IMG/VR virus record: IMGVR_UViG_2778261667_000013
Location: 1 to 36,128 of that record
Length of the DNA stretch: 36,128 bases
Strand: one strand, 5' to 3'
DNA from: a virus
Lineage: Duplodnaviria; Heunggongvirae; Uroviricota; Caudoviricetes
Shown here in pieces: positions 4,484 through 35,849 of the stretch. The notes under the pieces are model-generated. The model made no database searches and was not told the DNA's origin. It saw only the letters and a list, made by a program, of their open reading frames with translations. The stretch's first letter is position 1. Each line of letters opens with the position of its first letter. A program made the translations under genes and the position numbers.

Positions 4484-5055
4484 TACTGCTTATCCTCATA
4501 CGTGAAATAACAGTCTGTAAAAGCCGGTTTAAGGTCTTTAAATGTGTTTTCTAAAATGGATTCACCAAAGGCCGTCAGCGGCTCGCCGGTTGCCGATGCC
4601 CCCGTTCTGAAACGGTAGACCGGCGTTTTTGTTCCGATAACATTGACCTGCCATGCCCAGCGGATTTCCGGTATCAGCAGACGGTCGCCGCAGCGGTTTA
4701 TCCCCACCCGGAATGGTCGCGGCTCCGTAATGGTGATGGTATAGCCCAGGCTGGCGGCAAGGCTCTTAAAGTAAGGGATTGACAGCCCGCCTGTGGCTGC
4801 CATTTTTACCAGGATATTCTGCCGCCGCTCCTGTTGTGTGGCACCTTCACGGGGGACAACACCGTACACGCGCTCCCAGTCGGACAGCGTCATCGATGCC
4901 TGCAACGGGGTGATTTGTGCCAGAACGCTCGCCGCTGATGCCTTCACGGCCTCCATGACGTCAGCCTCGGCTGCCAGCTCTGCAGAAATATAATTCCCGT
5001 TCGGGTCATAACTGACAGGCGGCAGCATGGCGCGAAATAAATCGACCATATTCAT
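4483..5055 (-). CDS. tail/baseplate protein (Mu R / gp48-like)
   Basis: 190 aa ORF between baseplate J-like gene and tail fibre, matching Mu gp48 position; assignment by synteny and general resemblance. Confidence 0.55.
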
Positions 5056-5058
5056 GAA

Positions 5059-6138
5059 TCACCCCTCACGCGGAAAAGACTGAATATCAATATTTCCCGG
5101 GCGCAGCCATTCCCACGTTGACGCGTTAATAATGGCTTTTACGTTGTCTGCAGGCGTAACGATTCGCCGGTCACTCACGCCGGAAATGAGTGAAATCTGG
5201 GTTTCCAGTTGTGAAATAATTAATTCTTGCCCCGGCTCCAGTCGGTTCATAAAATCCGTGATAACGTCAGTTATCTGCGGTTTTATCTGCTCAACGGTCA
5301 GGCCGCTGGTTTTTACCCGGACAACGAAATCAACGGCTTTTTTCGTCGGGGCCAGTACCATCGTGTCCTTCGCTGTAACCGGGCGGACTTCCTCAATATG
5401 TGCCAGCACGGCATTAATCAGTTCCTGAGAGGGAAGATCATTAGCTGACGTAATGGCCACATCAACCGTCCCCAGTCCACGACGCAACGGCTCCACATAC
5501 GCAGACGTAACGCCATCCACTTCCAGCGCCCAGCGTTTGTAATCATATTTGTTACCGCCAGCGGGCGGCCTGCGCAGAATATCCAGATAACGCGCCAGCA
5601 GGTCGGCGTCGCTTTCCCTGTCCGTTCCGCCGGTCAGGGATTTAATCGTCACCGTGCTGTTGATGCCTTCCGGCGGGCTGACCAGCGTTGCCGTCTGCGT
5701 CGTGGATGCATTCGTCTGTGCCCCCGTGGCGGTGCTTTTTACCGTCACCTCCGCGCTGCCTTCATCACCGATGGTGCAGTCTGCTGTGGTGGCCACGCTG
5801 ACACCTTCACCACGAATTTCCGCACCGGCTGGCAGCGTCTTACCGGGTGTGCCGGTAATCACTACCGGACCGGATGAGGCTGTTGCTTTTTTACGAAAAA
5901 CATTGCGCGTGCGACAGTGCAGCTCCAGATATTCAGGGTCTGCCGTGTCAGGAAACACCTGACGGAGTATCCACCCCTGATGCATATAAAGCCCGTCAGC
6001 CACGCCGGATACGGCATTTGCACGAATGCGGTAATCGCTGTCAGCGCCGGTGTCTATGGTTTCTCCCGGCAGGGCGTTAGCGATATCACGTAGCTGGCGT
6101 TCTGTGTTTTCAGCAACGCCCGGAACAGGAAACGGCAT
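5059..6138 (-). CDS. baseplate J-like protein (Mu W / gp47-like)
   Basis: 359 aa; size, position and sequence character of baseplate J family; precedes gp48-like and fibre genes. Confidence 0.7.
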   Translation of the reverse strand: MPFPVPGVAENTERQLRDIANALPGETIDTGADSDYRIRANAVSGVADGLYMHQGWILRQVFPDTADPEYLELHCRTRNVFRKKATASSGPVVITGTPGKTLPAGAEIRGEGVSVATTADCTIGDEGSAEVTVKSTATGAQTNASTTQTATLVSPPEGINSTVTIKSLTGGTDRESDADLLARYLDILRRPPAGGNKYDYKRWALEVDGVTSAYVEPLRRGLGTVDVAITSANDLPSQELINAVLAHIEEVRPVTAKDTMVLAPTKKAVDFVVRVKTSGLTVEQIKPQITDVITDFMNRLEPGQELIISQLETQISLISGVSDRRIVTPADNVKAIINASTWEWLRPGNIDIQSFPREG

Positions 6139-6488
6139 TACATAATCCTCACAGGGTGTTCAAACGTCTGCGGTGTGCCCGCGTTATCCGTGACGGTGAT
6201 TAACAGCAACAGCCAGCCGCGCTGGCCCGCTTTCGTGTCAACGGTAATGGATTTTGCCCGCCCGTCATTGAGCAGTGGCTGAAGTGCCTGGCTGGCATAC
6301 TGCGCCGCCAGTCTGTGAACACGGGGAACGTCTTTTTCCCGCTTCAGCTCGTGCAGGCGTGACCCCAGCGACGCATCCGCCCAGTAACTGCCAAGCGGTG
6401 TCGCCAGTCGCAGATAAACCGCGTTATGGAGTGTGTAAATCCGGCGGCGTTCGTAGTCGCCGGTTGCAGGTGAAATCGTCTGGTCCAT
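6138..6488 (-). CDS. baseplate protein (Mu V / gp46-like)
   Basis: 116 aa, ATGA overlap with downstream J-like gene; synteny with Mu gp46. Confidence 0.55.
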   Translation of the reverse strand: MDQTISPATGDYERRRIYTLHNAVYLRLATPLGSYWADASLGSRLHELKREKDVPRVHRLAAQYASQALQPLLNDGRAKSITVDTKAGQRGWLLLLITVTDNAGTPQTFEHPVRIM

Positions 6489-23577: not shown

Positions 23578-23629
23578 GTCACACCTGGTATACAAATATC
23601 AGACGGCCCGGAAAACCGGGCCGCTGTGG

Positions 23630-24130
23630 TTAACTGAAATTATCCTCAAGCTCTTTAGCGAAGCCTTCGAGCACCTCAAGAAACGGGGCATACTGTGCCG
23701 GGTGACGCTCCTTGATGAACGCGCCGAGCCGCTGCACCACTTCCAGTGCCGTGGCGAGCCGGTCGGTTTCCGGCAGGATTTTTTTACTGCTGGCCACCGC
23801 CTTACTGAGACTGTCAGACAGACTCGCCAGCAGTTCGACGGACTCCTGCGGCGGGATGTCCGGGTTCTGGTTCAGCCGTTCAAGCGTCGTCTGACACTTC
23901 ACCACCAGACTGATAAGCACGGTGCGGGCGACACTTTCCAGCCCGTCACCGGCGAGCGCGTGCGCGGCCCGCAGCTTGTCCCAGTCGTCGCCGTTCTTCA
24001 TCGCCTGCGTTTTCCAGCGCCGCGCTGTGTCGTGCGGCACGGCGTACTTCATGGCGACGATATCCAGCGGAAGCTGGTCAAAGATGTACCCGTTACGGAC
24101 TTTGTCCCTGATATCCTGTGACCACGCCAT
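23630..24130 (-). CDS. terminase small subunit candidate (Mu gp27-like)
   Basis: 166 aa immediately upstream of terminase large subunit; synteny. Confidence 0.6.
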   Translation of the reverse strand: MAWSQDIRDKVRNGYIFDQLPLDIVAMKYAVPHDTARRWKTQAMKNGDDWDKLRAAHALAGDGLESVARTVLISLVVKCQTTLERLNQNPDIPPQESVELLASLSDSLSKAVASSKKILPETDRLATALEVVQRLGAFIKERHPAQYAPFLEVLEGFAKELEDNFS

Positions 24131-24336
24131 TAAGTGTCCTTCTGAGCCTGTTCAATCAGGCATTTAACTTCGTCGGGATTTTCAAGAACATACACGTTTT
24201 TCCCGGTATCCAGCTCAATGATCGTGCCACCATATGCACCACACTGACGGTAAAAATGGGTGATGCGTTCAGCGACTACCATGACAGCGCTGGTGCTCCC
24301 TGAGCCTGCGCATTCTGTAAATCTGATAATGCTCAC
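24130..24336 (-). CDS. hypothetical protein (Mu gp26 position)
   Basis: 68 aa ORF, ATGA overlap with terminase small subunit start. Confidence 0.4.
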   Translation of the reverse strand: MSIIRFTECAGSGSTSAVMVVAERITHFYRQCGAYGGTIIELDTGKNVYVLENPDEVKCLIEQAQKDT

Positions 24337-24356
24337 TGTGTCAGACCTTCAAAAAA

Positions 24357-24542
24357 TCAGTTCTGTGATGAACACTGCCGGATGCCGTCAATAATCCGGC
24401 AGACCTGTGCCGCCGCGTCAAACAGCTGGCCCGCTCTGTTAATGTCCGTGCATCCCACCGGAAGCAACATCACCAGAAACAGGGCCAGAACACAGCGCGC
24501 GGCTTTACGTGGCGTTCTGTGTGTCCAGTGCTGACGCGTCAT
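24357..24542 (-). CDS. small lipoprotein, outer-membrane spanin (Rz1-like) candidate
   Basis: 61 aa; hydrophobic signal VLALFLVMLLPVGC with lipobox-like LPVG-C, ~30 aa mature part with 3 Cys; overlaps endolysin stop by 4 nt. Confidence 0.5.
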   Translation of the reverse strand: MTRQHWTHRTPRKAARCVLALFLVMLLPVGCTDINRAGQLFDAAAQVCRIIDGIRQCSSQN

Positions 24543-25084
24543 ACCGCCACGCGCTCCTTCAGCCAGCCATAAACAAACGATTCGTTAGCCTCGCGTTTCT
24601 CTGCCAGTTCCAGATAGCGGTCACCCTGCGTGCAGTTCAGGGCTGTCAGCATCACCCGTTCACCGTCCTGACCGCGATTATTCAGGAAGGCACGCAATGC
24701 ACTGATGGTACGAGGCCCGATGCGTCCGTCTGCGTCCATATCCGGGTACAGCCTGCCGCGCAGATTGAACACATTCAGCCAGCGCTGAAGCATTCTGGAC
24801 GCCACGGTTGGCCCCATATTCACACCGGTATCACACAACTCTGCGGCAATATCAGGGGATAATGCGGCGACCTGGTCAAATCGCGGGCCATACCAGTAAT
24901 CGGCTTCAAGGATGTCCAGCGCCTGTTCGCGGGTTAAATCGCGCATATCGCCACGGTATCCGTGGGCACGGGCGACTTTTTCCGTAATGCCCCATTTGGT
25001 CGGACCACCCTTATCATCCGGGTGATTGACGTAACCGCCTTCTTTGCCCAGGACTTCATCAAAAATTTTATCTTTTGATTTCAT
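24539..25084 (-). CDS. endolysin, GH108-type lysozyme with C-terminal peptidoglycan-binding domain
   Basis: 181 aa; N-terminal motif FDEVLGKEGGYVNHPDDKGGPTKWGIT characteristic of glycoside hydrolase family 108; no N-terminal transmembrane segment. Confidence 0.85.
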   Translation of the reverse strand: MKSKDKIFDEVLGKEGGYVNHPDDKGGPTKWGITEKVARAHGYRGDMRDLTREQALDILEADYWYGPRFDQVAALSPDIAAELCDTGVNMGPTVASRMLQRWLNVFNLRGRLYPDMDADGRIGPRTISALRAFLNNRGQDGERVMLTALNCTQGDRYLELAEKREANESFVYGWLKERVAV

Positions 25085-25370
25085 GTGGATGCCTCAGTAA
25101 CGAAAGGATTTTTGACAAATTCCCGTGCGCCCACACGATAAGCGCACAGAAAACCAGATTCAGCGCCACAACCAGCCAGCTGGAGTGCGTGTATGTACCG
25201 GACAGCCAGCGGAACGGGATGATGATGTAACCGAGCATCAGCCAGTACGCCAGCCAGGTAATCATCGGTTTATGCGCCGCACCGTGGCGGCGATACACAA
25301 ACAACCCCAGCACAATGGCGAGGCACAGCCAGACGTTCACGATACCGGCAAGGCTACTTTCCATTTCCAC
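25068..25370 (-). CDS. small membrane protein (holin/antiholin candidate)
   Basis: 100 aa with 2-3 predicted transmembrane helices; sits between holin-like gene and endolysin. Confidence 0.45.
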   Translation of the reverse strand: MEMESSLAGIVNVWLCLAIVLGLFVYRRHGAAHKPMITWLAYWLMLGYIIIPFRWLSGTYTHSSWLVVALNLVFCALIVWAHGNLSKILSLLRHPHEIKR

Positions 25371-25746
25371 CCCCTCCGCCGCGCAGTCTGGAAAACAGGC
25401 CGAACAGCGATGAAATTTCCTGTTGATAAAGAAAGGTCAGTATCTTGATGGATAACGCCGAGACACCGACCGCACACAATGCATCGAGCGGCTTGTCGTT
25501 GTAGTGGGTCAACCACTGCATCAGTGACGCAGCCACGCCAGCCCCCAGAACGCCAACCACAAACGCGACGAGCAGGTGAATAGCCATTCGCCATACCGGG
25601 ATTTCTTTCTGCTGCGTGACAACAAAAAGCGCCCCGGCAAACGCGCCCACCACGACCCCGAAATCGGTATTGGTGAGAAGGCCAAACACACTGGCACCAC
25701 CGATGGTGACTGCCACAGCTCCGCCGCCTGATAAGGGTTCAGACAT
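25354..25746 (-). CDS. holin-like membrane protein
   Basis: ORF 25354..25806 trimmed to ATG at 25746 (MSEPLSGGG...) with strong RBS CAGGAGAAACTC; 3-4 predicted TM helices; first gene of the lysis cassette. Confidence 0.55.
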   Translation of the reverse strand: MSEPLSGGGAVAVTIGGASVFGLLTNTDFGVVVGAFAGALFVVTQQKEIPVWRMAIHLLVAFVVGVLGAGVAASLMQWLTHYNDKPLDALCAVGVSALSIKILTFLYQQEISSLFGLFSRLRGGGGGNGK

Positions 25747-25885
25747 GAGTTTCTCCTGTAAATCTGAGCCACTGACGGCCCGTAAATAACACCCTGTCAA
25801 AGGCACAAAAGCCTTTTGCAGGGCGCTATCCCTTAAGGTGCCTTGTGGTCTGAGTGGACAGGGTAAACGGTCTGGTGTGGTGGGT

Positions 25886-25914
25886 ACTGCTGGGGGTGTT
25901 CAGCACCCCCAGCA
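25886..25914 (-). promoter_or_regulatory. conserved motif site 3 (upstream of lysis cassette), 12 bp perfect inverted repeat
   Basis: ctgctgggggtg-ttcag-cacccccagcag; ~140 nt upstream of the holin start. Confidence 0.45.
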
Positions 25915-25933
25915 GGTTGATTAGCTGGATGGG

Positions 25934-26221
25934 TTAAAGGGAAGCGAGTTTTAATGGTGGCTTATAACACGCCTGCGCAAGCAGGTTAGCTCTTTCCACG
26001 GCTTTACGCATTTCCCGTTCTGCGTCCAGCATCCTGTTTACGGCTGACAGCACTTCATTATGATTCGTTTCTGACTCCGGGCTTTGGGCCTGTCTCGCCA
26101 GATAACTGGATAAATTACACATCTCAGCATGTCGGCGACGGGCTGCATCCCGGGCCTTGTCTGAAAATGCGGTATATTCACCGAGTGCTGCGTAGTCGAT
26201 ATTGGTGTCAGAACTCATCAT
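25934..26221 (-). CDS. hypothetical protein between activator gene and lysis cassette
   Basis: 95 aa ORF, Arg/Glu-rich, no recognisable motif. Confidence 0.4.
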   Translation of the reverse strand: MMSSDTNIDYAALGEYTAFSDKARDAARRRHAEMCNLSSYLARQAQSPESETNHNEVLSAVNRMLDAEREMRKAVERANLLAQACYKPPLKLASL

Positions 26222-26248
26222 TTCGTGTCTCCTTTTTTCTGAGTCTCA

Positions 26249-26280
26249 TTAATCAAAAAGCCCCACCTGGGTGGGGCTTT
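26249..26280 (-). terminator. rho-independent terminator overlapping the 3' end of the Mor/C gene
   Basis: Minus-strand hairpin GCCCCACC-CA-GGTGGGGC followed by TTTTTGAT and the stop codon; coordinates approximate. Confidence 0.6.
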
Positions 26281-26716
26281 TCAGCGAAGTCTGTTTTTGT
26301 CGTCGGTGTATCAGCTGCCATGCGTACCGGTCTGAAATGCCGTAACGGGGACAGAGCAGTGCCAGCGCCTGCCGGTGTGAGCATCCGTCTTTTACATGCT
26401 GCTGTAAATCAGCCATAAAACGGGTGTTACGCAGGGCACGTAACGCATGATCGCAACGGGGAATGTAAAACGGCGCACCGCCAAGAAAGCGGATCAGTTT
26501 GTTGATTTCGTCTTCGGTCAGCACATCATGTAACAGGGCATGGACACCGCCGGTTCGTTCGGCGTGTGCGCCGGTTTTACCGCTTAACGTCACGCCACCA
26601 AAAGAACGGATTAACCGGGTCAGGGCGGGGAAGCCAATCACGCTAATCAGTTGCTGCACGGAATCAGGCAACAGTGCCTGCGCATCGCGAAGATCTGTTT
26701 CACTGAAGGTCTGCAT
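26249..26716 (-). CDS. Mor/C-family transcriptional activator (middle/late gene activator)
   Basis: 155 aa; C-terminal region ...FLGGAPFYIPRCDHALRALRN...RYGISDRYAWQLIHRR matches the Mor/C signature (GG..YIPR plus C-terminal HTH). Confidence 0.8.
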   Translation of the reverse strand: MQTFSETDLRDAQALLPDSVQQLISVIGFPALTRLIRSFGGVTLSGKTGAHAERTGGVHALLHDVLTEDEINKLIRFLGGAPFYIPRCDHALRALRNTRFMADLQQHVKDGCSHRQALALLCPRYGISDRYAWQLIHRRQKQTSLKSPTQVGLFD

Positions 26717-26778
26717 GATGGCGTCTCCGGTAGTAACTTACTGTTATTATAGCCATACATGATCGCCTGTACAGACCA

Positions 26779-26806
26779 CAAAAAAAGCCCCTGCAAGGCA
26801 GAGGCT
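26779..26806 (-). terminator. rho-independent terminator downstream of GemA-like gene
   Basis: Minus-strand hairpin AGCCTCTGC-CTTG-CAGGGGCT followed by TTTTTTT; 7 nt after the stop at 26813; coordinates approximate. Confidence 0.7.
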
Positions 26807-26812
26807 GATTCT

Positions 26813-27226
26813 TTATTGTTTACGTGCTGCTCTGGCTCGTTTTCTGGCGTCTTTTGTCAGCGCCACCATCACCCCGAACAGTTGATCATCTGTCAGCCAT
26901 TCGATCACATGTTGCTTATACATGTGAGATGCCAGTCCTTCCGCATACGCCCAGGAACGACCGGCATCAGCCAGCAACGCTTCAATTTTGGATAATACTG
27001 ATTTTCTGCTCATTGCAACACGGGGGCGGCGACCTTTACCGGCGGGTGCCTTGCGCGGAAATCCCTGTTCGTGCATGTATTCCCGGATGATGCGCAGTTC
27101 ATCAAGATTGCAACGTGTGGTGCTGGTTTTACCTGTCAGGCGGGCCAGTGTCTGGCGATAAAGGGCATCATCCCACCCCAGATACGCCTGACCGGCTTTA
27201 ATGGCCCCGATCATCTTTTTCAGCAT
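26813..27226 (-). CDS. GemA-like protein (Mu gp16 / DUF1018-like)
   Basis: ORF 26813..27325; start placed at MLKKMIGAIKAGQAYLGWDD... (27226); position immediately before the activator gene as in Mu. Confidence 0.55.
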   Translation of the reverse strand: MLKKMIGAIKAGQAYLGWDDALYRQTLARLTGKTSTTRCNLDELRIIREYMHEQGFPRKAPAGKGRRPRVAMSRKSVLSKIEALLADAGRSWAYAEGLASHMYKQHVIEWLTDDQLFGVMVALTKDARKRARAARKQ

Positions 27227-27476
27227 GTTTGTTATCCTCAAAACGCACGGTAAAACGTGAAACGCCAATTCCTGACAGGAACGTGGCGGCACGATCAAGA
27301 GACAGCCACGTCTTGTAATCGCCACGGCGTTCCTGTAGAAAATAGGACACCCCGGCGCGACGATTCACAGCAAAGAGGTGATACACACCACCGAACCGCT
27401 GCACGACGAACTCATCCACGCCACCGCTTTCAGCCTGCTGCCTGAAGGCAGCTATTCCGATTTGTTCAATCTTCAT
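27198..27476 (-). CDS. hypothetical early protein
   Basis: ORF 27198..27512; ORF-track start ATG lies in the centre of a 26 bp palindrome, so downstream ATG (MKIEQIG..., 27476) is preferred; no clear RBS for either. Confidence 0.35.
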   Translation of the reverse strand: MKIEQIGIAAFRQQAESGGVDEFVVQRFGGVYHLFAVNRRAGVSYFLQERRGDYKTWLSLDRAATFLSGIGVSRFTVRFEDNKHAEKDDRGH

Positions 27477-27499
27477 AATGACCAAAACACTACTTTTGG

Positions 27500-27525
27500 C
27501 AGACCAAAACATATGTTTTGGTCTG
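27500..27525. promoter_or_regulatory. 26 bp perfect palindrome CAGACCAAAACATATGTTTTGGTCTG (operator-like site)
   Basis: Perfect dyad centred on CATATG, preceded by a second CCAAAAC...TTTTGG inverted repeat at ~27482-27499; intergenic between two early ORFs; coordinates approximate. Confidence 0.5.
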
Positions 27526-27556
27526 CGCTTAATTGTTATTTGCTCAATGCGGTGAA

Positions 27557-27808
27557 TTATTTATCACCATCACCGAGCGTCACTTCATGACAGGATGGCG
27601 TGCCATTTTTCCCCGCAGAGCAATAAATAAACTTATCTCCGTCGGTCATGGTGGCACTTCCATCATCACAATGCGTAATGGTTTTGATGAAATTTCTCTT
27701 TACCACGCAATGCCCATTTTTCGCATCATCAGAAGCCTTGTTAGTTGTCACACAAAGCGCAATACCCGTAGCAATCAGAGCGATAATAAAAATGTCAACC
27801 CATCTCAT
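27557..27808 (-). CDS. small Cys-rich protein with N-terminal signal/TM segment
   Basis: ORF 27557..27976 trimmed to MRWVDIFIIALIATGIALCV... (83 aa); hydrophobic N-terminus then soluble part with 4 Cys. Confidence 0.4.
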   Translation of the reverse strand: MRWVDIFIIALIATGIALCVTTNKASDDAKNGHCVVKRNFIKTITHCDDGSATMTDGDKFIYCSAGKNGTPSCHEVTLGDGDK

Positions 27809-27812
27809 CTTT

Positions 27813-28031
27813 TCACCCCGCGTAATCAGGTCCATGTTCCCATCTGGCATCGAGTATTTCCGTTCCCTCCGTCCGGCATGGGTTATCAAGTGCCATTTTT
27901 CCGCACTCCCCATACTCGACATCGACAAAATCAGCAATATCATTGTCCGTTGCGTTATCAGGAACGTCGATTTCAAGCGTTACAGTGATAGTTTTCATCA
28001 GGTTGTTACTCCGAGATTCAGAAAATTTCAT
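27813..28031 (-). CDS. small acidic hypothetical protein
   Basis: 72 aa ORF (possible internal start MKTITV...); Asp/Glu-rich. Confidence 0.35.
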   Translation of the reverse strand: MKFSESRSNNLMKTITVTLEIDVPDNATDNDIADFVDVEYGECGKMALDNPCRTEGTEILDARWEHGPDYAG

Positions 28032-28039
28032 GCCGGGAC

Positions 28040-28450
28040 TCAGTATGTGAAATAGACAGTTGCCACACCGTTATAGTGGTCAAACGACACGGCGTTTACC
28101 TCATAACTGGCCGGGAGCTTCGAGCCAAGAACGTATCCGGGCCACGTTTTCCATGGAATTTCTCTGCTCTCACTATCGCCATATACCGTACATCCCAGTG
28201 AGCCTACAGCTTCATAAGAACGCTTACCGCACGTTATGAACCCCAGATTTTGCTTACTGCCCTTAACAGAAATCGGGAGAGCACTGGCTGATGCGTTAGC
28301 AGCGCCCCGCTCCTGTTGGCTTGCGATATTCGCAGAGTTCGCAGCAGCTACAGCAGCCGTTGTCGCGGCGGTAGATGCCACAATAACTGCTGAAGCCTGT
28401 GCCTGTTGGGTAACGGTCAGCAATGCCGCCACAAAAATCATCTTCTTCAC
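28040..28450 (-). CDS. secreted protein with cleavable signal peptide
   Basis: 136 aa; N-terminus MKKMIFVAALLTVTQQAQA is a classic Sec signal peptide; Ala-rich linker then a domain with two Cys; ~190 bp non-coding region upstream. Confidence 0.55.
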   Translation of the reverse strand: MKKMIFVAALLTVTQQAQASAVIVASTAATTAAVAAANSANIASQQERGAANASASALPISVKGSKQNLGFITCGKRSYEAVGSLGCTVYGDSESREIPWKTWPGYVLGSKLPASYEVNAVSFDHYNGVATVYFTY

Positions 28451-28643
28451 CTGGTATCTCCTTTACATGCTGTGATTTTTCCAGCGGTTTTGCGCCGCAC
28501 TTCTGCTCCGCCAGACACCGTAAAAACGAATAGAGGAGCACCCCCTAAAACCCAGATATCTATAGTAAATAACAAGCCTGTTTGAGATACGGATACGCTG
28601 CCCTGGCTTTGCTATCAGCAGTCTTGCCTTACGGTTTTTCATC

Positions 28644-28835
28644 TCATCCTTCCTCGCTTTTTGCAGTTTCAAACCACGCATCCTGCCCCACAACATCATC
28701 ACCACATGGTGGTTCAGATTCTGAATAGCGACCGGCCCACCAGTATTTACCATTACGATGCTTTGCTGTGCCGCAACGCTGGCATATGAAAATTGACCCA
28801 TCACGCTGATAATGATGGATGTGCTCGTTACTCAT
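28644..28835 (-). CDS. small Cys/His-containing protein (zinc-ribbon-like candidate)
   Basis: 63 aa; HIHHY...ICQRCG...PPCGDD; ATGA overlap with upstream ORF. Confidence 0.4.
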   Translation of the reverse strand: MSNEHIHHYQRDGSIFICQRCGTAKHRNGKYWWAGRYSESEPPCGDDVVGQDAWFETAKSEEG

Positions 28836-29056
28836 TGTGCAGCCTCCTGTTTTGCCACTTTAAACGCCCGTAACATCGGGACCGTTTTACCGGTGATGAC
28901 GGTTCTCATTAAAAGACCGCCACCGCTCTCATGGCGCACTTCAGGAGCAACAAACAGCGCCGCATCCACAACCCGGCAATAGCGACGGAACTCCCAGAAC
29001 CAGCAGGTAACAATGATTTTTGCGGTGACTCCGTAGTCATAAAATTCAATATTCAT
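28832..29056 (-). CDS. hypothetical early protein
   Basis: 74 aa; ATGA overlaps on both sides (translationally coupled cluster). Confidence 0.4.
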   Translation of the reverse strand: MNIEFYDYGVTAKIIVTCWFWEFRRYCRVVDAALFVAPEVRHESGGGLLMRTVITGKTVPMLRAFKVAKQEAAQ

Positions 29057-29280
29057 TTGCAGTTAAACCTTCTTTTGTGACGTTCTACAGCGGCTTTCAT
29101 GGCGTTGTGCACGGTTCTTTTAATAATCCGGCGTCCCGCACTGTCATAGAACCGCCACCGGGAAGCCTCCGGATATTTAGGGAACTCAACCGCCGCGCTG
29201 TCGTCATTCATCCTGTATTCGTGGCGTTCTCCGGGCGGCTGGTATATTGCTTCGGTAACACTGAGAAGTTTAAAAGCCAT
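29053..29280 (-). CDS. hypothetical early protein
   Basis: 75 aa basic protein; start 3 nt after the DUF2786-like gene stop. Confidence 0.4.
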   Translation of the reverse strand: MAFKLLSVTEAIYQPPGERHEYRMNDDSAAVEFPKYPEASRWRFYDSAGRRIIKRTVHNAMKAAVERHKRRFNCK

Positions 29281-29282
29281 CG

Positions 29283-29993
29283 TTATCCCCTCCCCAGTGC
29301 CAGCGGCCTGTTGTTCTGACCATTAACTCCCTGATGCAGTCTGGCGTTTTTCCCGGCGATAAAACCGGCTGTAGCAGCAAACTCTGCACCCCTGCACGCT
29401 TTAGCTGTGCGCATATCCCCGTCGCGCAGCCCTTTAGTGCTGTGCAGGTTCTTTCTGTAAAGCTCAAGGCGGCTTTTTTCTTCCGGGGAGACGTCATACA
29501 CCGCAATGACATCACGGGCACCAAAGACCCAGCCTTCGCAGAACTGGTCGCCACGGGCCACCCGCGTGGACGGACCGCAACGTTTGCAGTGTTTATCCTG
29601 ATATTTCTTGCGCTCTGCCATCATCTGACGGGAAAGCACATCAAACGCGTAGGCCGCAATTTCCGGGCGGCTGTCAGGGCCATAAAAACGAACGTAACGT
29701 TTGAGTGAACCAGAAGCCCGGTACTCACCGGAGATGTAACACTCGACACCGAAGGCTTTACATACCAGGTCACACAGGATGTGCATATAACGCGGCGGCG
29801 TACTGGCATCGCTCGGCGCACCCGCGCTGGCAGCTTCCTGAATGTCGAACAATTCCGCGTCGTTTTCGCTGATACCATGCTGGCGCATATAAGCCTGGGC
29901 TTTTGCAATAGCGTTAGCGGCTTCTTCCGGGCTTGATGTTCCTCTGGCAAGGCGTAACAGTTTTTTGATTTTGGCAATGTATTTATCTTTCAT
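29283..29993 (-). CDS. DUF2786-like protein
   Basis: 236 aa; N-terminus MKDKYIAKIKKLLRLARGTSSPEEAANAIAKAQAYMRQHGI resembles the DUF2786 N-terminal helical domain; C-terminal part has CxxC (HCKRCG) and further Cys. Confidence 0.5.
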   Translation of the reverse strand: MKDKYIAKIKKLLRLARGTSSPEEAANAIAKAQAYMRQHGISENDAELFDIQEAASAGAPSDASTPPRYMHILCDLVCKAFGVECYISGEYRASGSLKRYVRFYGPDSRPEIAAYAFDVLSRQMMAERKKYQDKHCKRCGPSTRVARGDQFCEGWVFGARDVIAVYDVSPEEKSRLELYRKNLHSTKGLRDGDMRTAKACRGAEFAATAGFIAGKNARLHQGVNGQNNRPLALGRG

Positions 29994-30006
29994 GGTCGCC
30001 TGAACC

Positions 30007-30189
30007 TCAGCGCCCTGGATTCTGAATTACGCAACTTCCAGCACGGCCTTCAGGAACGTGGGGAGTTCGTTCTGGCTGCGGCGCTGGATGAACATCTGCT
30101 GTCGATTGAAAACTGGTCGCAAGACGATTAAAACAAACGATTGTCAGATTAATTTCGCGGGCGAATTTTTTTTGCTTGGCGATATTCAT
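30007..30189 (-). CDS. short ORF downstream of repeat copy A (possibly a gene remnant)
   Basis: 60 aa; good RBS (GAGGA) supplied by the repeat, but protein is low-complexity and Pro-rich in its second half. Confidence 0.25.
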   Translation of the reverse strand: MNIAKQKKFAREINLTIVCFNRLATSFQSTADVHPAPQPERTPHVPEGRAGSCVIQNPGR

Positions 30190-30202
30190 AAATAAACTTC
30201 CT

Positions 30203-30273
30203 CAGATTCAGGCGTAAGCCAGCCCTGGCGGGTTTACGCCATATACAAATAAAATTAAAAACAGACTTATTAA
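30203..30273. repeat. intergenic direct repeat copy A (hairpin + RBS cassette)
   Basis: cagattcaggcgtaagccagccctggcgggtttacgcc + AT-rich tail; ~38 bp core identical to copy B except 1 nt; coordinates approximate. Confidence 0.7.
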
Positions 30274-30821
30274 CTACGACGTTCAGCTTTCCGGTAATGA
30301 CGGTCAACAGACTTTACGAACGCCTTCACATCACGGGCAATCGAATCCAGCGGATAATATTCATCCAGCAGTTCCATCCCGCTGAATCGAATCTGAAAAA
30401 AATCAGGCTTATCTTTATATGACTCCATCAGGTCAATAAACCGCAGCTGACGCGGGAGGGATTCCTGCACGCCTGAAATAGTGAGCAAATCATCTTCAAG
30501 GATGTATGCAAGGTCTACCATATCCTTACAGTCAGACATCATGGATATTCTTGTCAGTATGTTCCGTGTGGCGATATACAGCGCGGCTGTGTCATTCGCC
30601 ATCATGGCGAACAAATCCCCCTGAATATAAGCCCCCTTACTGGCCATAGCATTCCCGGCAATCTGCGCATCAAGTACCACATACATAAAATCGCCAGGTG
30701 CACCCAGATGGCCCAGCAATGATGACGCCCATAACGTTACATTGGTTAACTTCCCAGATGAACGGACAGCAAAACCTTCAGGAGTAACAATAAATTCCCA
30801 GACTTTATCTTTCATATACAA
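30270..30821 (-). CDS. hypothetical protein (accessory module gene 2)
   Basis: 183 aa; no recognisable motif; lies between the two repeat copies. Confidence 0.5.
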   Translation of the reverse strand: MYMKDKVWEFIVTPEGFAVRSSGKLTNVTLWASSLLGHLGAPGDFMYVVLDAQIAGNAMASKGAYIQGDLFAMMANDTAALYIATRNILTRISMMSDCKDMVDLAYILEDDLLTISGVQESLPRQLRFIDLMESYKDKPDFFQIRFSGMELLDEYYPLDSIARDVKAFVKSVDRHYRKAERRS

Positions 30822-30879
30822 ATCCCCTTAATTCAGGCGCAGACCTGTTTACCTGCGCCATAAAAAAACGAAGTCAGAG

Positions 30880-31272
30880 TTAAAAATCGAAGACGTCAGT
30901 TAATTCCCGCTTCAGTGAAACGCACTCAGAATAAAAGCCCTCGCTCTCACCGCACCATCTGACGACTACACAGCCTTTTGATGTGCCGAACTTAAAGAAA
31001 CTCCATGTCTGATGACCTTCCCCGACATCACATTCTTCGGTAACCACTTCAGCCTCTGTCAGCGGTTCATCTTTCAGGTCGTCAAGGTCTCCGACGATGT
31101 CCTCAATCCAGACTTTTTCGCAGCCTTCCTGAAAGTGGAAAAATGTAAACACGGTTCCCCATACTCCCCGGGAATAATCACCACGAAAAACAAGTTCATC
31201 GTTTTCATTCTTAACTACTTCTTTAAATGTACGCCCAAGCATTTCATTGATAACGGTAACACTCATTTTCAT
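30880..31272 (-). CDS. hypothetical acidic protein (accessory module gene 1)
   Basis: 130 aa, acidic with 6 Cys; RBS GGAG supplied by repeat copy B. Confidence 0.5.
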   Translation of the reverse strand: MKMSVTVINEMLGRTFKEVVKNENDELVFRGDYSRGVWGTVFTFFHFQEGCEKVWIEDIVGDLDDLKDEPLTEAEVVTEECDVGEGHQTWSFFKFGTSKGCVVVRWCGESEGFYSECVSLKRELTDVFDF

Positions 31273-31277
31273 TTCTC

Positions 31278-31350
31278 CAGATTCAGGCGTAAGCCAGCCC
31301 CGGCGGGTTTACGCCTGTTTTAAATAACAATTAAAAACAAATTAAATTAA
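31278..31350. repeat. intergenic direct repeat copy B (hairpin + RBS cassette)
   Basis: cagattcaggcgtaagccagccccggcgggtttacgcc + AT-rich tail; ends at the stop of the upstream ORF; coordinates approximate. Confidence 0.7.
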
Positions 31351-31538
31351 TGCGGTGCTTTCAGTGTTTCGACTTTTACGAAATAAGGCTCGACATTAAT
31401 TTCAACCACACAACCACATTTAAAATCTCTGACAGGTGAAACGGTTTTCACCACACGACCGCCACGCAACGCCGGATGTGCAGTGTGCATGAAGCGAGTC
31501 CCTACCGGATACTGCTTATTAAAGTTCTTCGCATTCAT
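31347..31538 (-). CDS. hypothetical early protein
   Basis: 63 aa ORF; no motif recognised. Confidence 0.35.
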   Translation of the reverse strand: MNAKNFNKQYPVGTRFMHTAHPALRGGRVVKTVSPVRDFKCGCVVEINVEPYFVKVETLKAPH

Positions 31539-31752
31539 GGCGTGGCCTCCAGCCCTTCAGGTGAGCGTTAGCGCAGAACTCCGCACGATGTTCAGCCCAG
31601 ATGCGGCGCAGGGTGCTACACGGGCTTTGCGCTGCCTTACGCCACAGCTTTTCAGCCTCGGCATAATCGCCGCGTTGTTCTGCTCTGGACGCGCCCAGCG
31701 AATACGCCGCGCAACTATTTCCGGCTCTGTACTCTTTGATATCCTGATGCAT
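31519..31752 (-). CDS. small hypothetical protein (possible small regulator)
   Basis: ORF 31519..31863 trimmed to MHQDIKEY... (31752) so that it abuts the upstream gene stop at 31754; weak resemblance to small helical regulators. Confidence 0.3.
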   Translation of the reverse strand: MHQDIKEYRAGNSCAAYSLGASRAEQRGDYAEAEKLWRKAAQSPCSTLRRIWAEHRAEFCANAHLKGWRPRHECEEL

Positions 31753-31753
31753 G

Positions 31754-32398
31754 TTAAACCCCTGCAATATCAAGCGGGATTGCGCGGTATTCAGCAGAAT
31801 CACCGACGCGCTCATACACGCGGATATAGCTTCTGCTGCCAACCACCTGGACGGCTTCACCAATCAGTTTCATGGCGTTATCCCAGCGTTCCTCCGTAAT
31901 ATCGAGACGACGCAGAGCCAGAACGCGCCCGGTGTTAATGTTGCCTTCCTTGTCCGTGCTGAATGCCTCACTGATGATGGCTTTAATTTCAGGGCGCGCT
32001 CCTTCCGTCCAGTCAGCCAGGCAGTCATCAATCAGTGCCTTCGCGGTCTGAATGCGTTCATCAAGCGCGATACGGTCCTGCATGGCGCGCTGAATCTTGT
32101 AACGCCCGTCAAAGCTGTAAAGCGTGATATTGCCTTTTTTGCCGCCTTTCACAGCGCCGTATTTCTCCGCTGACAGGTCAATAAATGCCTGAATATCACC
32201 AAACGCACGCAGTTTCAGTTCACGCAGTGAGGCGGAGGCAGCAATCACCATCTCCACAAGCTCACCGACCAACTGCTCACGGTCTCGGTCAATATCTTTG
32301 ATAAGACTTTCAGGCGTCATCACACCACGGGCATCAACCCAGTAGCCTTCCTGCACTTTATTTTTTGTATATTGCTTAACTTTATTTTCAGTCGTCAT
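31754..32398 (-). CDS. DUF3164-like phage protein
   Basis: 214 aa; sequence character and position downstream of B match the DUF3164 family common in Mu-like prophages; from recall, not searched. Confidence 0.5.
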   Translation of the reverse strand: MTTENKVKQYTKNKVQEGYWVDARGVMTPESLIKDIDRDREQLVGELVEMVIAASASLRELKLRAFGDIQAFIDLSAEKYGAVKGGKKGNITLYSFDGRYKIQRAMQDRIALDERIQTAKALIDDCLADWTEGARPEIKAIISEAFSTDKEGNINTGRVLALRRLDITEERWDNAMKLIGEAVQVVGSRSYIRVYERVGDSAEYRAIPLDIAGV

Positions 32399-32427
32399 AA
32401 TTAAATTACCTCAGTGATATTTACAGA

Positions 32428-32643
32428 TTAATTTGTGTTATGTGCGCGAGGCGCAACGTTTTCAGAAAAAAGATTCACGCCGTTATAGTCATTTCTGAGC
32501 GTTTCCTTGATAACATCATGTAATCTTGTTGCCACCTGAAACTCCTTTTCGGAAGCTCCGTCCTCCGAATAACTCCCCGTGGTCTGGGTTAAAACACAGC
32601 CTTTTTCATCGGTATAGATAATTACTTCTAACTTAACCGCCAT
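32428..32643 (-). CDS. hypothetical early protein
   Basis: 71 aa ORF. Confidence 0.35.
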   Translation of the reverse strand: MAVKLEVIIYTDEKGCVLTQTTGSYSEDGASEKEFQVATRLHDVIKETLRNDYNGVNLFSENVAPRAHNTN

Positions 32644-32655
32644 TCTGATTTCCTC

Positions 32656-32895
32656 TCATTGCCATACGACGGTGCAGCCGTCGATACAGGACGTTTTCAC
32701 CACGCGGCGCAGGCCGCTGAATGTCTGGATGATTTCCGTTACCGGCCATACAGGACCACCCACGGGCGGGCAGGCATAAACCACAGGTAAACGGTGATGC
32801 TGTCCCGTTACACGACCGCCAGTGGTGTGGATGGCCACACGGGCACGGGAACGGACGGCGTTAATGGTCTGCTTGTCCATCGTCTTGTTCTCCAT
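32656..32895 (-). CDS. hypothetical early protein immediately downstream of B (Mu kil position)
   Basis: 79 aa; stop/start overlap with B; synteny only. Confidence 0.35.
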   Translation of the reverse strand: MENKTMDKQTINAVRSRARVAIHTTGGRVTGQHHRLPVVYACPPVGGPVWPVTEIIQTFSGLRRVVKTSCIDGCTVVWQ

Positions 32896-33788
32896 CAGTG
32901 AATTAACATTTCTGCGAATTTATCAATGGCCTGCACACTGACCGGTGCATCGCTGATATCACAAATCCGGTACACACCGCGCGCCAGTTTGAAGAGGCGG
33001 CGGGCATTACCCAGCGAGCGTGCGTAAAGCGCCTCGCTGATTTCCGGTTCTGCTGCTTCCGGCATCAACCCGGTAGCTATCTGGTTAAAATCTTCCTGCG
33101 ACAACGTATCGCCCAGGTTAAGCGCCAGCGCCACACGGCTGTATAACTGGGCGAACTCACCACGACGCCCCTTAAGGTTAATCAGAAGACGAGGCATACC
33201 CGCCAGGACAACCCCGATACCCGCTTTGTCATGCAGACGACGCAGAACCTCCAGTGCGCGATAGGGGAGCAGTTCAGCCTCGTCCACCATCAGCAGGCGA
33301 CCGGAATCACGCAGTTCGCGCACACAGGCATCTATCAGTTCGTGAATGTTGCCGCGAACCTTTACCCCCAGCTGGCGGCACAACTCCTCAAGCAGTGTTC
33401 TGGCTGTATAGCCCGGGTCAGCCTCAATCAGGACCGCATCCCGGTTTCTGGCGGCGTATTCACGCAGAATCATTGTTTTGCCAAGACCTGCCGCGCCATA
33501 CAGTACGCAGATTTCACATTCCAGGTGAGCATAGGCCAACACCTCCAGTCCTTTGGCAGCCATACCGGTGGCAACAAATTTCGCTTTAATACGGCGGCTG
33601 TTTTCCTTTTCCCGCTCACGGGTCACAAAGGCAGAAATGCGTTCTTCAATATCAGCCATATCGCCCTGATATTTACCCTGTAAATACTGGTTGATAACGG
33701 CGCTGCTACGACCAATAGCACGGGCGACGTGGGTTTGCGTATAGCCGCGACGGGCCATTACGTCATTTAATTGCGTAATTAAACTCAT
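32895..33788 (-). CDS. MuB-like transposition ATPase (AAA+)
   Basis: 297 aa; N-terminal HTH-like segment (YTQTHVARAIGRSSAVINQYLQGK), Walker A GAAGLGKT, Walker B LLMVDEAE; immediately downstream of transposase. Confidence 0.85.
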   Translation of the reverse strand: MSLITQLNDVMARRGYTQTHVARAIGRSSAVINQYLQGKYQGDMADIEERISAFVTREREKENSRRIKAKFVATGMAAKGLEVLAYAHLECEICVLYGAAGLGKTMILREYAARNRDAVLIEADPGYTARTLLEELCRQLGVKVRGNIHELIDACVRELRDSGRLLMVDEAELLPYRALEVLRRLHDKAGIGVVLAGMPRLLINLKGRRGEFAQLYSRVALALNLGDTLSQEDFNQIATGLMPEAAEPEISEALYARSLGNARRLFKLARGVYRICDISDAPVSVQAIDKFAEMLIH

Positions 33789-33806
33789 AATTAAATACCT
33801 TTTAAA

Positions 33807-35849
33807 TTAACGGTTGTTTGTGCCGTTTTTCTTTAAATTGCGCTCGCGTTCAGATGCGAATAAATAAAGTTCTTCTTTTTCCTTTTTCTCCTGGCGTTCC
33901 AGTCCATATCCCAGATTAAACTCAGGCTTCTGCGTAATAGCCGGGGTAAGCTCGCGTTTAGCCTCTTCGATTTTCTGCGCGGCCCGTGCAATGCGGCCTC
34001 TGACGCGTTTCTCCAGTTTTTGCTCGATAACTGGTTTAGCGAAGGCATCAACCTTGTTACCGTTCCAGATGGCATCGCAGATATAAGAGCCATCAGCCCG
34101 CCGGACAATGACACTGTTTGCATCATGAATATCGTAACTGACCCTGACTTCATTCCCGTGCTCTGCGGCCAGCTCATACGAGTAATAAATATTGTTGAAT
34201 AACTGAATTTCCCCGCGAAATGTTTTGCGCGTCACTTCCGGTCTGAACATTTCATGCAGTTCTTCCGGCGACAGGAAATCAATTTCAACATTCTGCTCTT
34301 TTATCAGTTTCCGGCGATACGCTGCCGGGCTGTAATATTCGCCATCCTCTTTGCGGGGAAGGCTGCTGTGTGGCCGGTTGTTATAGCGTCTGACCTCCAG
34401 TTCTATGGCTGCCATCAGTTGCTCAAAGGTGGGGATTTCATCCCTCGCCTTAACCTGCCGTTTTGTCAGTTCTTTCCCTTTGTGGGTGGCCTTAATGGCT
34501 GACTGCATAATCCGTTGCTGCATCATTACGGTTTCCTTGTCTGCTCCCTTTGAGCAGTACGTCTGGAAACTCAGGGCCACATCCCGGGGAATTTCCTTGT
34601 TAAGCCTTTCAATCACCCCGCGCCCCTGCGGGTTACCTGGTATCCCCGTGTGATGTTCCACACCCAGCCGGGGGAGAATCCCGGTAATATCGGCATCAAG
34701 AACCCGGTTTTTTTCGCCGCCCCCGTTATCGGAGTAATAAATCAGCGGTATCCCGTGCTGTGCCATGCCGTAACGCAACGCATCAGCAACGGCTATCACG
34801 TTCTCCGACAGGGACAGCGACCAGCCCACAACAAAGCGTTGCCCCGCATCCATAACCAGCGTCACTTCTGGCCGGAAAATATTGCCGGTCAGTGGGTTAA
34901 ACGCGGTCATCTTCATACAGTGACCATCCCCGACCCATACCGCATTAACCGGTAGCGATGTCCAGTCGCGCCGCACAAAGGGATTGAGCGAACGCCAGGC
35001 TGAACCGGTGGAGCGGAAACGCTCCTTAACAATCACCGGGACGTTGCTTAACACCCGTCTTACTGCGTGAACGGAAGGCAGTGCTGCCAGCATTCCCGCA
35101 TCATTCGCGTGTTTTTCATGCCACCAGGCTGAAAACTCGCGATAAGCGTATTCAACGGTCGGGCGCTTCCATGAGCGATAGAACATAAAGAAATCGCTCA
35201 ACCACCAGACCTGCTCCCACGGTGTTCCCTTATGATGACCGGGAGCCAGTAACGCCAGTAACTGATTGGCATCACCGCGCGCCATCAGCCAGGCGGAATA
35301 CCATTCCTGTAAACATCCCCAGCTGACGCCAGTTCGCTTACCCTGTCTGGCGTTGGCAGTACCTGCGGCCTCAATAATGCGGTCAGGCAATGCCCTCTGA
35401 CGAATACCATCAACGATGTGTTTTACTGCTGCCGTCCTGGACATTCCTGCGTATTCACGCAGTTTATGCACTTCGGTAGCCAGCAATATCCGCGCATCAG
35501 CGATGGCCTTTTGCTTGTCGGTCAGTGCCTGGACTTCGCGTAATGCCAGTTCCGGGCATTTGACCATCACTTCCAGTTCATCGCGAACGGTAACGTTTTT
35601 AACTGCCTTCTGCTCAACCACGGCAGGCAGTTGTGCATCTTCCAGAACCTGATGGGTCAGGCGTTTACGTAAAACTTTCTGCGCTTCAGCAGGCAGGCAG
35701 TCGATGTGATACTCGAATGCTTTGGTGCCTTCACGCTTGCGCTTCCATTCCGGGTTATTTTCAGCAAGACGATCCAGACGTGCCCGGATGTTTTTTTCTG
35801 CTGATGGAAAACCGGATAATCCCAGGCAATCCCGCACTACAAACCACAC
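33807..35849 (-). CDS. MuA-like DDE transposase
   Basis: 680 aa; catalytic-core-like motifs WVGDGH and YYSDNGGGE; located between ner-like and B-like genes as in Mu. Confidence 0.9.
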   Translation of the reverse strand: MWFVVRDCLGLSGFPSAEKNIRARLDRLAENNPEWKRKREGTKAFEYHIDCLPAEAQKVLRKRLTHQVLEDAQLPAVVEQKAVKNVTVRDELEVMVKCPELALREVQALTDKQKAIADARILLATEVHKLREYAGMSRTAAVKHIVDGIRQRALPDRIIEAAGTANARQGKRTGVSWGCLQEWYSAWLMARGDANQLLALLAPGHHKGTPWEQVWWLSDFFMFYRSWKRPTVEYAYREFSAWWHEKHANDAGMLAALPSVHAVRRVLSNVPVIVKERFRSTGSAWRSLNPFVRRDWTSLPVNAVWVGDGHCMKMTAFNPLTGNIFRPEVTLVMDAGQRFVVGWSLSLSENVIAVADALRYGMAQHGIPLIYYSDNGGGEKNRVLDADITGILPRLGVEHHTGIPGNPQGRGVIERLNKEIPRDVALSFQTYCSKGADKETVMMQQRIMQSAIKATHKGKELTKRQVKARDEIPTFEQLMAAIELEVRRYNNRPHSSLPRKEDGEYYSPAAYRRKLIKEQNVEIDFLSPEELHEMFRPEVTRKTFRGEIQLFNNIYYSYELAAEHGNEVRVSYDIHDANSVIVRRADGSYICDAIWNGNKVDAFAKPVIEQKLEKRVRGRIARAAQKIEEAKRELTPAITQKPEFNLGYGLERQEKKEKEELYLFASERERNLKKNGTNNR

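Follow-up and report, generated by a model that had tools for sequence, protein, structure and literature searches.

How does a Mu-like prophage run its lytic programme when it carries only one gene of the Mor/C activator family? Phage Mu uses two paralogous activators, Mor and then C, in a three-step cascade. We addressed this question in a DNA stretch of 36,128 nucleotides (IMG/VR record IMGVR_UViG_2778261667_000013, positions 1 to 36,128; hereafter, the window), which is a Mu-like prophage of Escherichia coli with genes read on the minus strand. All genes, promoters, and terminators whose window positions are given below lie on that strand. At positions 25934-26806, a single Mor/C-family gene stands between two terminator-like hairpins and is followed by a 95-aa open reading frame (ORF). 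The best explanation, at a probability of roughly 0.6, appears to be a lytic programme run by one Mor/C activator, with its own sigma-70-type promoter and three late promoters as its targets.

Identification and copy number of the activator gene

The activator gene (26716-26249) encodes a protein of 155 aa, which matched the Pfam family PF08765 (Mor) with 29.1 bits (cut-off, 24.9; E 1.1e-6) and phrog_836, annotated as late transcriptional activator, with an E of 1.2e-42. Proteins of the Mor/C family consist of about 100-150 aa and are acidic in the N-terminal half and basic in the C-terminal half, with a glycine-containing beta-strand linker and a helix-turn-helix near the C-terminus (PMC2582627). 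The window protein had a net charge of -2 over its N-terminal half and of +7 over its C-terminal half. Furthermore, its sequence FLGGAPFYIP was aligned with FLGGRQFYIP of Mu C and HLGGGQVYIP of Mor, showing conservation of the LGG..FYIP linker.

Pairwise searches of all ORFs with Mu Mor and Mu C barely detected the true gene (E 0.14 and 0.0015, respectively) and were replaced by Pfam scans and a family hidden Markov model (HMM). The HMM was built from the orthologue group together with Mu Mor, Mu C, and a Xenorhabdus paralogue, and all 689 stop-to-stop ORFs of at least 30 aa in the six frames of the window were used as the target. The sole match was the ORF at 26252-26737 (5.6e-72); no second Mor/C gene was found in the six frames, where the next best ORF had an E of 0.56. 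In addition, 20 further early ORFs were scanned with Pfam, and none matched Mor at E up to 1. When the Mor1 protein of a Xenorhabdus prophage was used as the query, the known window gene was matched at 1.3e-25 and nothing else was. The HMM was also applied to a complete, 98%-identical prophage of E. coli STEC316 and its flanks, and a single copy was found. This element was recovered from host flank to host flank, beginning with the repressor gene beside the host agaF and ending with the DUF4376 gene beside the host agaE; hence, the window holds nearly the entire phage. The original prediction had recognised one Mor/C gene at 26249..26716 and had suggested an HMM search for a further homologue. 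That search, made over the early ORFs, the six frames, and the STEC316 prophage, left the gene as the only one of its family.

The same prediction implied that a lone Mor/C gene is unusual. This premise was not sustained: a tblastn search of 50,697 phage records with the activator found 136 records with 136 places, one copy in each, including Pseudomonas D3112/MP22-like phages and phages of Ralstonia, Klebsiella, Haemophilus (SuMu), and Mannheimia (3927AP2). For KS10 and the Pseudomonas group, one Mor is listed, beside GemA. In 3927AP2, phiMhaMu2, and SuMu, lys directly follows mor, and C and com-mom are lacking (PMC4553209). A single Mor/C activator is, accordingly, a known and common state among Mu-like phages.

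Relationship of the activator to Mu C

The genomic context of nine related genes was taken for comparison. The relatives compared included Salmonella L004, L011, L009, L010, L012, Serratia, Aeromonas, and Xenorhabdus L007; the E. coli prophages Ec55 and E2348/69 were also compared. The Xenorhabdus prophage L007 contains two family members, namely Mor1 (4315-4779), located after GemA, and a second gene (5328-5786) in the position of C, with a gap of 92 nt before it and the lysis genes right after it. These two paralogues are 37% identical to each other and have a Mu-like arrangement. Since L007 keeps both, loss or gain of the first step occurred within this phage group. The window activator was 55.6% identical to the C-position protein of L007 versus 34.6% to Mor1. 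Moreover, a profile of 15 orthologues matched the Mu C structures 9l0x and 9vw8 at an E of about 1e-3 (9l0x, E 9e-4) versus 0.78 for the Mor structure 1rr7 (22 bits for C and 12.5 bits for Mor), and its alignment to Mu C extended through the C-terminal QxxLF. Because both the L007 identities and the profile favour C over Mor, Mu C is the most fitting counterpart of the lone gene; by sequence, we assign it as the orthologue of the C-position paralogue in the two-activator prophage L007.

Terminator and promoter upstream of the activator gene

The last gene of the early operon in the window is gemA (27229-26813; PF06252, E 1.7e-18), whose product is labelled as regulatory protein GemA by the Prokaryotic Genome Annotation Pipeline (PGAP) in 98%-identical prophages. 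A terminator scan and folding placed an intrinsic terminator directly after it (26806-26779). The stem AGCCTCTGC / GCAGGGGCT (26806..26786) consists of 9 pairs, of which 6 are G-C, with a 3-nt CTT loop, and is followed by T7; the folding energy was -16.5 kcal/mol (z -2.6). The strong terminator that had been noticed downstream of the GemA-like gene is thus borne out.

This terminator is followed by a predicted sigma-70-type promoter (26773-26746), which agrees with the consensus at 10 of 12 positions. It comprises a -35 hexamer TGTACA (26773-26768), a 16-nt spacer, and a -10 hexamer TATAAT (26751-26746), and the spacer contains GATC (26764-26761). Both hexamers and the GATC are invariant in five promoter variants, namely those of the window, Ec55, E2348/69, L011, and Salmonella L004. 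In the last, 6 of the 16 spacer positions are changed, and the sequence 3' of the -10 hexamer has also diverged. All five variants have a terminator at the same position; four different stems occur, and the changes between them are compensatory. In the window, this terminator follows gemA; in the other four variants, it follows one of three different genes for secreted proteins, the one in L011 being the same as that in Salmonella. The homology between the E. coli prophages stops exactly at the terminator. The invariance of the hexamers beside varied stems and neighbours argues that early termination and the promoter are under selection. A position weight matrix (PWM) scan, for which the matrix is described below, found no activator-type dyad before the activator gene; therefore, autoregulation is not predicted.

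Related prophages carry different cargo genes between gemA and the activator promoter, which marks this slot as a hot spot. Those found there (L014, 1132-1470; L015, 1014-1490; L004, 9359-9886; L011, 9350-9874) each encode a signal-peptide protein and each end in a terminator of their own; the window has none.

Three wirings of the activator gene were seen within one orthologue group. First, in Serratia, Aeromonas, L009, L010, and L012, the end of gemA and the activator gene overlap, which makes the latter the last early gene. Second, Xenorhabdus L007 has the activator-type promoter ACTGAACCCCTTCAAC-N23-AATACT in front of the gene and a paralogue upstream of it. Third, in the window, Ec55, E2348/69, L011, and Salmonella, the gene is preceded by a terminator, a T-run, and TGTACA-N16-TATAAT. 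Such a series of relatives could show how cascades gain or lose steps.

Prediction of three late promoters

An exact 15-mer, GGGTGCTGAACACCC (minus strand), was observed at 25908-25894 before the holin gene and at 18483-18469 before the protease gene, and a copy with two mismatches was observed at 6543-6529 before the GP46-family baseplate gene (gp46). This motif could be taken for an RNA hairpin or for a palindrome of 15 bp (GGGTG-CTGAA-CACCC), but both readings were rejected, as the pairing is not kept in the third site and in the relatives. The conserved core is a 16-bp imperfect dyad, GCTGA-N6-TCAGC, of which the first G lies exactly 39 nt before an nAnnnT hexamer. This spacing was fixed in all 19 sites, and the 23 nt between the dyad and the hexamer diverged freely. 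The 19 sites were located before the lysis and protease genes in E. coli, Salmonella, Serratia, Xenorhabdus, Aeromonas, and four metagenome or read-assembly relatives.

In the window, the predicted lysis promoter (25915-25860) contains the element GCTGAACACCCCCAGC (25904-25889) and a -10-like TACCCT (25865-25860); the predicted head promoter (18479-18425) contains GCTGAACACCCTCCAC (18479-18464) and CATCAT (18440-18435); and the predicted baseplate/tail promoter (6539-6486) contains GCTGAACACCCTCACC (6539-6524) and CAGACT (6500-6495). The PWM was built from the 16 sites of the relatives alone, with the window sites left out. It selected exactly three minus-strand intergenic sites in the window, of which the baseplate site scored 27.7 bits (the top score of the window), the head site 27.5 bits, and the lysis site 24.9 bits. 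The next best position had 13.0 bits, and the maximum over 30 shuffles was 13.4 bits. The architecture of the lysis promoter was repeated before the lysis genes in nine relatives, and the spacing of the head promoter and its place before the protease gene were repeated in eight. Intergenic gaps are few in the late region, and the baseplate promoter is located in one of them.

When the hexamer is placed at -12 to -7, the dyad extends from -51 to -36 and its centre is -43.5. Mor at Pm and C at the late promoters of Mu bind a 16-bp dyad centred at -43.5, accompanied by a -10 element without a -35 element (PMC4390567, PMC2582627); this figure was taken from the papers and not from the geometry of Pm and Plys in the Mu sequence itself. 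Taken together, these findings suggest that the three late promoters, located before the lysis, head-protease, and baseplate genes, are probably activator-dependent.

The start codon of the protease gene (ATGAAG at 18427) is 7 nt and that of gp46 (ATG at 6488) is 6 nt 3' of the respective hexamer, and neither gene has a Shine-Dalgarno sequence. In all eight relatives whose locus reaches the protease gene, this gene likewise starts 6-7 nt 3' of its hexamer. From these distances, the protease and gp46 mRNAs are therefore predicted to be leaderless.

The dyad of the lysis promoter is located inside a 29-bp perfect palindrome (25915-25887), which as RNA would fold with -25.7 kcal/mol (z -4.8). This palindrome lies directly 3' of the 95-aa ORF and has no U-run; it could be a 3' stabilising hairpin of the upstream transcript.

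Overlap of a clamp-binding-like motif and a terminator

The original prediction also held that the gene ends in a second terminator whose hairpin is encoded by its own last codons. A simple terminator scan missed it, and it was found by folding (26282-26250). The hairpin (26282..26255 plus UUUUUGAUU) has the stem GAAAAGCCCCAC / GUGGGGCUUUUU with a CCAG loop, followed by GAUU. Its folding energy was -20.6 kcal/mol (z -3.6), and none of 200 shuffles was as good (0/200). Indeed, it overlaps the codons for KSPTQVGLFD and the stop codon. It was kept in L011 and Salmonella L004 with a sole substitution in or beside the loop, and was absent in the orthologues whose gene overlaps gemA. An Rfam scan of 24000-29000 gave only sub-threshold matches, all to the terminator hairpin (26226-26322). 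By their form, a G+C-rich stem directly before a U-run, both this hairpin and the one after gemA are classed as intrinsic terminators.

The codons for QVGLF (26269-26255), a clamp-binding-like motif one residue from the C-terminus, are part of this overlap; thus, the same 30 bases carry a protein motif and an RNA signal. QVGLF was aligned with QPDLF of Mu C, which Ho and Harshey reported to be a beta-clamp-binding motif required for C-dependent transcription (PMC12867686). In the same paper, the clamp-binding motif was reported as a feature of the whole Mor/C family, located at the N-terminus and/or the C-terminus (PMC12867686). The window activator begins with MQTFSETDL and lacks the N-terminal form, Qx[DE][LM]F. 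Q150, L153, and F154 are at least 90% conserved in the 15 orthologues, and all of these end in QxxLF(D), as QVGLFD, QPGLF, QPRLFD, or QLGLFND. Hence, the window activator may well bind the clamp through QVGLF. The E. coli/Salmonella lineage is the only one in which the QxxLF codons double as a terminator.

Characterization of the 95-aa ORF

The 95-aa ORF (26221-25934), which had been noticed as an unassigned ORF between the second terminator and the lysis genes, proved to be real and conserved. Its sole match was phrog_7152, of unknown function, and no Pfam family was matched. It has a strong ribosome-binding site, AAGGAG, 27 nt 3' of the activator stop codon. Because it is placed before the lysis promoter, it would belong to the transcription unit of the activator and depend on read-through of the terminator. 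An AlphaFold model (predicted local distance difference test, pLDDT, 87) consisted of two long helices at residues 10-46 and 54-82. A fold search with this model gave no match at E <=0.001 and returned only generic helical hairpins, and a homologue search with the protein returned only close, unnamed E. coli relatives.

Homologues occupy the same slot in L011, Salmonella, and L010. The Serratia copy is broken by a stop codon and a frame change, and other small ORFs replace the gene in L009, L012, Aeromonas, and Xenorhabdus, where the late promoters are unchanged. The model and this distribution suggest that the protein is a dispensable accessory two-helix hairpin and not a hidden activator.

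Proposed circuit and alternative explanations

We propose the following circuit. The early operon would end at the terminator after gemA, and the activator gene would be transcribed from its own near-consensus sigma-70 promoter; the Mor-dependent first step of Mu would be missing. The activator, presumed to be the functional counterpart of Mu C, would bind as a multimer to GCTGA-N6-TCAGC centred about 43.5 bp upstream of the start at the three late promoters. The bound activator would recruit sigma-70 RNA polymerase, probably with the help of the beta clamp via the C-terminal QVGLF. Its own transcript would mostly stop at the hairpin of its last codons, and read-through would feed the dispensable 95-aa accessory gene. 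In this scheme, we infer the DNA binding, the promoter activity, the clamp use, the terminator efficiency, and the silencing of the promoter in lysogens from sequence features. The possibility of a simplified or rearranged cascade, which had been raised at the outset, agrees with one activator that is a C-position orthologue, an ordinary sigma-70 promoter before it, and three predicted late promoters. The circuit offers a testable regulon consisting of one activator, one binding motif, and three predicted promoters.

Several points weigh against this proposal. All of the evidence is computational, and the transcript ends, the binding, and the promoter activity are predictions. An unregulated promoter this close to the consensus should put a lysogen at risk when it drives a late activator, but the prophage is intact and widespread; a control is therefore missing from the proposal. 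No repressor-operator-like sequence was found at the activator promoter by comparison with the repressor region: the only sequence common to it and the c-ner region of a related prophage was a trivial AT-rich 8-mer. The gene overlaps gemA in the early operon in five relatives, so that early read-through could matter here. As for the late promoters, the -10-like hexamers (TACCCT, CATCAT, and CAGACT) are weak, the E. coli sites have a degenerate right dyad half (CCAGC, TCCAC, and TCACC), and two of the three promoters would give leaderless mRNAs, which are unusual for structural operons.

The insulated promoter hence raises the question of how a late activator with a near-consensus promoter stays harmless in a lysogen; the requirement of Mu C for the replication clamp, reported in 2026, bears on this question. 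The possibilities include an early regulator or repressor, early read-through, control at the level of activity (copy number or clamp), and Dam methylation.

First, most of the activator might come from transcripts that start at the early promoter and pass a leaky terminator, with the terminator serving as an attenuator or delay and the hexamers being secondary. We consider this unlikely, although it would account for the silent prophage, as the phage repressor controls the early promoter, and is in line with Serratia, Aeromonas, L009, L010, and L012, in which the gene lacks a separate promoter. On paper, however, the terminator is strong (9 pairs and T7), the four different stems kept at this spot argue for selection for real termination, and the promoter hexamers are invariant while their surroundings diverge.

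A three-step cascade might, second, have been kept, in which the first step is an early protein outside the Mor/C family, or loss of the repressor, that turns on the activator promoter. In favour of this, the critical TTG is missing from the -35 hexamer TGTACA, which is itself a palindrome and invariant in all variants, and a stable lysogen needs some control. In addition, several early ORFs have no assigned function, and one of them is named an ANR-family regulator by PGAP in a related prophage. However, no candidate has been identified as the regulator, a perfect TATAAT with a 16-nt spacer is usually active without an activator, and the activator promoter and the repressor-operator region have no sequence in common. 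We judge this alternative to be similarly unlikely.

A more speculative thought is that, in the E. coli/Salmonella lineage, replication licensing has taken the place of the transcriptional step with which the Mu cascade starts. The activator would then be supplied from an ordinary promoter, cut off from early transcription, and the timing would come from replication and not from a second activator. The late promoters would fire after replicative transposition had raised the copy number and loaded beta clamps for QVGLF, and the conserved GATC of the spacer would perhaps be left hemimethylated. We regard this as doubtful.

The layout of terminator, promoter, gene, and terminator might also be a scar of modular recombination, that is, the boundary of a moron-type cassette without regulatory meaning. 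The exact break of homology at the terminator in the E. coli prophages, and the different secreted-protein genes in the upstream slot of Ec55, E2348/69, L011, and Salmonella, fit this idea. Nevertheless, the same promoter and a terminator are present in every variant, including the window, which has no extra gene, and this points to function; a mere scar is thus quite improbable. Finally, that a second Mor/C homologue has diverged beyond detection, as had been suggested, or that the 95-aa protein is the second activator is very improbable: Mu and the Xenorhabdus relative do have two paralogues (at 37% identity in Mu), but the profile searches of the early ORFs, the six frames, and the complete related prophage were empty, a gene like Xenorhabdus Mor1 would have been found easily, and the 95-aa hairpin has no helix-turn-helix and is broken in Serratia and absent from four relatives with the same late promoters.

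Comparison with known systems

The single-activator circuit preferred here resembles the middle operon of Mu, in which the activator gene likewise lies between two terminators and directly upstream of the lysis promoter; the Mu sequence has hairpin-plus-T-run motifs right after mor and right after C. The layout is equal, with the Mor-dependent promoter exchanged for an ordinary one. As with Mu C, the predicted target promoters have a 16-bp imperfect dyad near -43.5 and a -10 element without a -35 element, and a hairpin follows the gene. Three of the four late-operon positions of Mu are matched (lysis, protease gene I, and baseplate), parallel to Plys, PI, and PP; the prophage differs in having no mom operon. 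On the other hand, the sequence similarity to Mu C is only about 20-30 bits, the window protein has an insertion of 20-30 residues (GFPALTRLIRSFGGVTL...) and lacks the N-terminal clamp motif, the dyad sequence is GCTGA-N6-TCAGC, and the gene lies behind a sigma-70-type promoter, whereas Mu C lies behind the Mor-dependent Pm. With Mu Mor, the window activator shares the family and an adjoining terminator. Mor, however, is the last early gene and activates only Pm, and the window has no first-tier paralogue of this kind. Of the features of the three-step cascade of Mu, two paralogues and an activator-dependent promoter for the second are lacking in the window, whereas an early operon ending at a terminator and an activator unit before the lysis promoter are present.

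The window shares one Mor/C gene near gemA with SuMu, 3927AP2, the D3112/MP22-like phages, KS10, and Klebsiella ST405-OXA48phi1.1. In single-activator Mu-like phages, as here, lysis or head genes follow the activator, and C and com-mom are absent (PMC4553209). In most of them and in five close relatives of the window prophage, the gene is in the early operon, often overlapping gemA; in contrast, the E. coli/Salmonella lineage has an activator cut off by a terminator, with its own promoter and its own terminator. Xenorhabdus L007 shares the C-position orthologue (55.6%) and the late-promoter motif with the window, but keeps Mor1 and has ACTGAACCCCTTCAAC-N23-AATACT where the window has TGTACA-N16-TATAAT. 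A moron-type autonomous unit likewise has a sigma-70 promoter before and a terminator after a single gene; the activator differs in being a core regulator and not cargo. The insulated, self-promoted activator gene with its predicted three-promoter regulon is, in this light, a new variant of a known design.

Prophage context and minor observations

In the window, a ner-like gene (36128-35859) is followed by the transposase A gene (35849-33807) and the B gene (33788-32895), a series of small early genes, GemA, the Mor/C gene, and the 95-aa ORF. Two holins and an endolysin lie 3' of the 95-aa ORF, followed by terminase, portal, head, and tail genes. Of 5,426 complete E. coli genomes, 61 contained a prophage with 97-98% identity to the window over 25300-27600; the prophage is thus carried by about 1% of them, including enteropathogenic E. 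coli (EPEC) E2348/69 and several Shiga toxin-producing E. coli (STEC) strains. A DNA search of the phage collection gave no close relative of the activator region, and a literature search for the Mu-like prophage of E2348/69 found nothing.

An early ORF at about 31519-31752 (minus strand) is named an ANR family transcriptional regulator by PGAP in a related prophage and has weak TPR-like Pfam matches here; it is a possible candidate for an unrelated early regulator. Also in the early region, a 64-nt intergenic element occurs in two copies that are 83% identical (30198-30261 and 31273-31336). A long hairpin, GGCGTAAACCCGCCAGGGCTGGCTTACGCC (minus strand), is part of this element, and both copies are located directly 3' of a small early gene. 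A further, strong hairpin (23603-23624, minus strand) of 9 pairs, 8 of them G-C, separates the DUF1804 gene from the gene of the large terminase within the predicted lysis-head operon; the T-run after it is poor.

The endolysin of the window (24539-25084) consists of a glycosyl hydrolase 108 domain and a peptidoglycan-binding domain, and that of STEC316 (L002, 19407-19784) is an M15 metallopeptidase. This difference between 98%-related prophages is a module swap within the lysis cassette.

CTAG has no site in the window (positions 1-36128) versus about 137 expected, and GATC is four-fold depleted, with 35 sites versus about 137 expected. Eight of these 35 GATC sites are clustered in 26449-27293, around gemA and the activator gene, and the adjoining 8.5 kb of the early region (27294-35770) is free of GATC.

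Outside the Mu-like phages, a Mor-family gene 49% identical to the activator was observed in an island (L013, 5904-6353) together with a primase (Toprim, DUF927) and a Phage_ASH gene; this island is not a Mu-like phage. The sequence before that gene (5833-5903) contains an activator-type promoter, GCTGACCTCGTTCAAC-N22-TACGCT, and the island might be a satellite-like element wired to the activator of a Mu-like helper.

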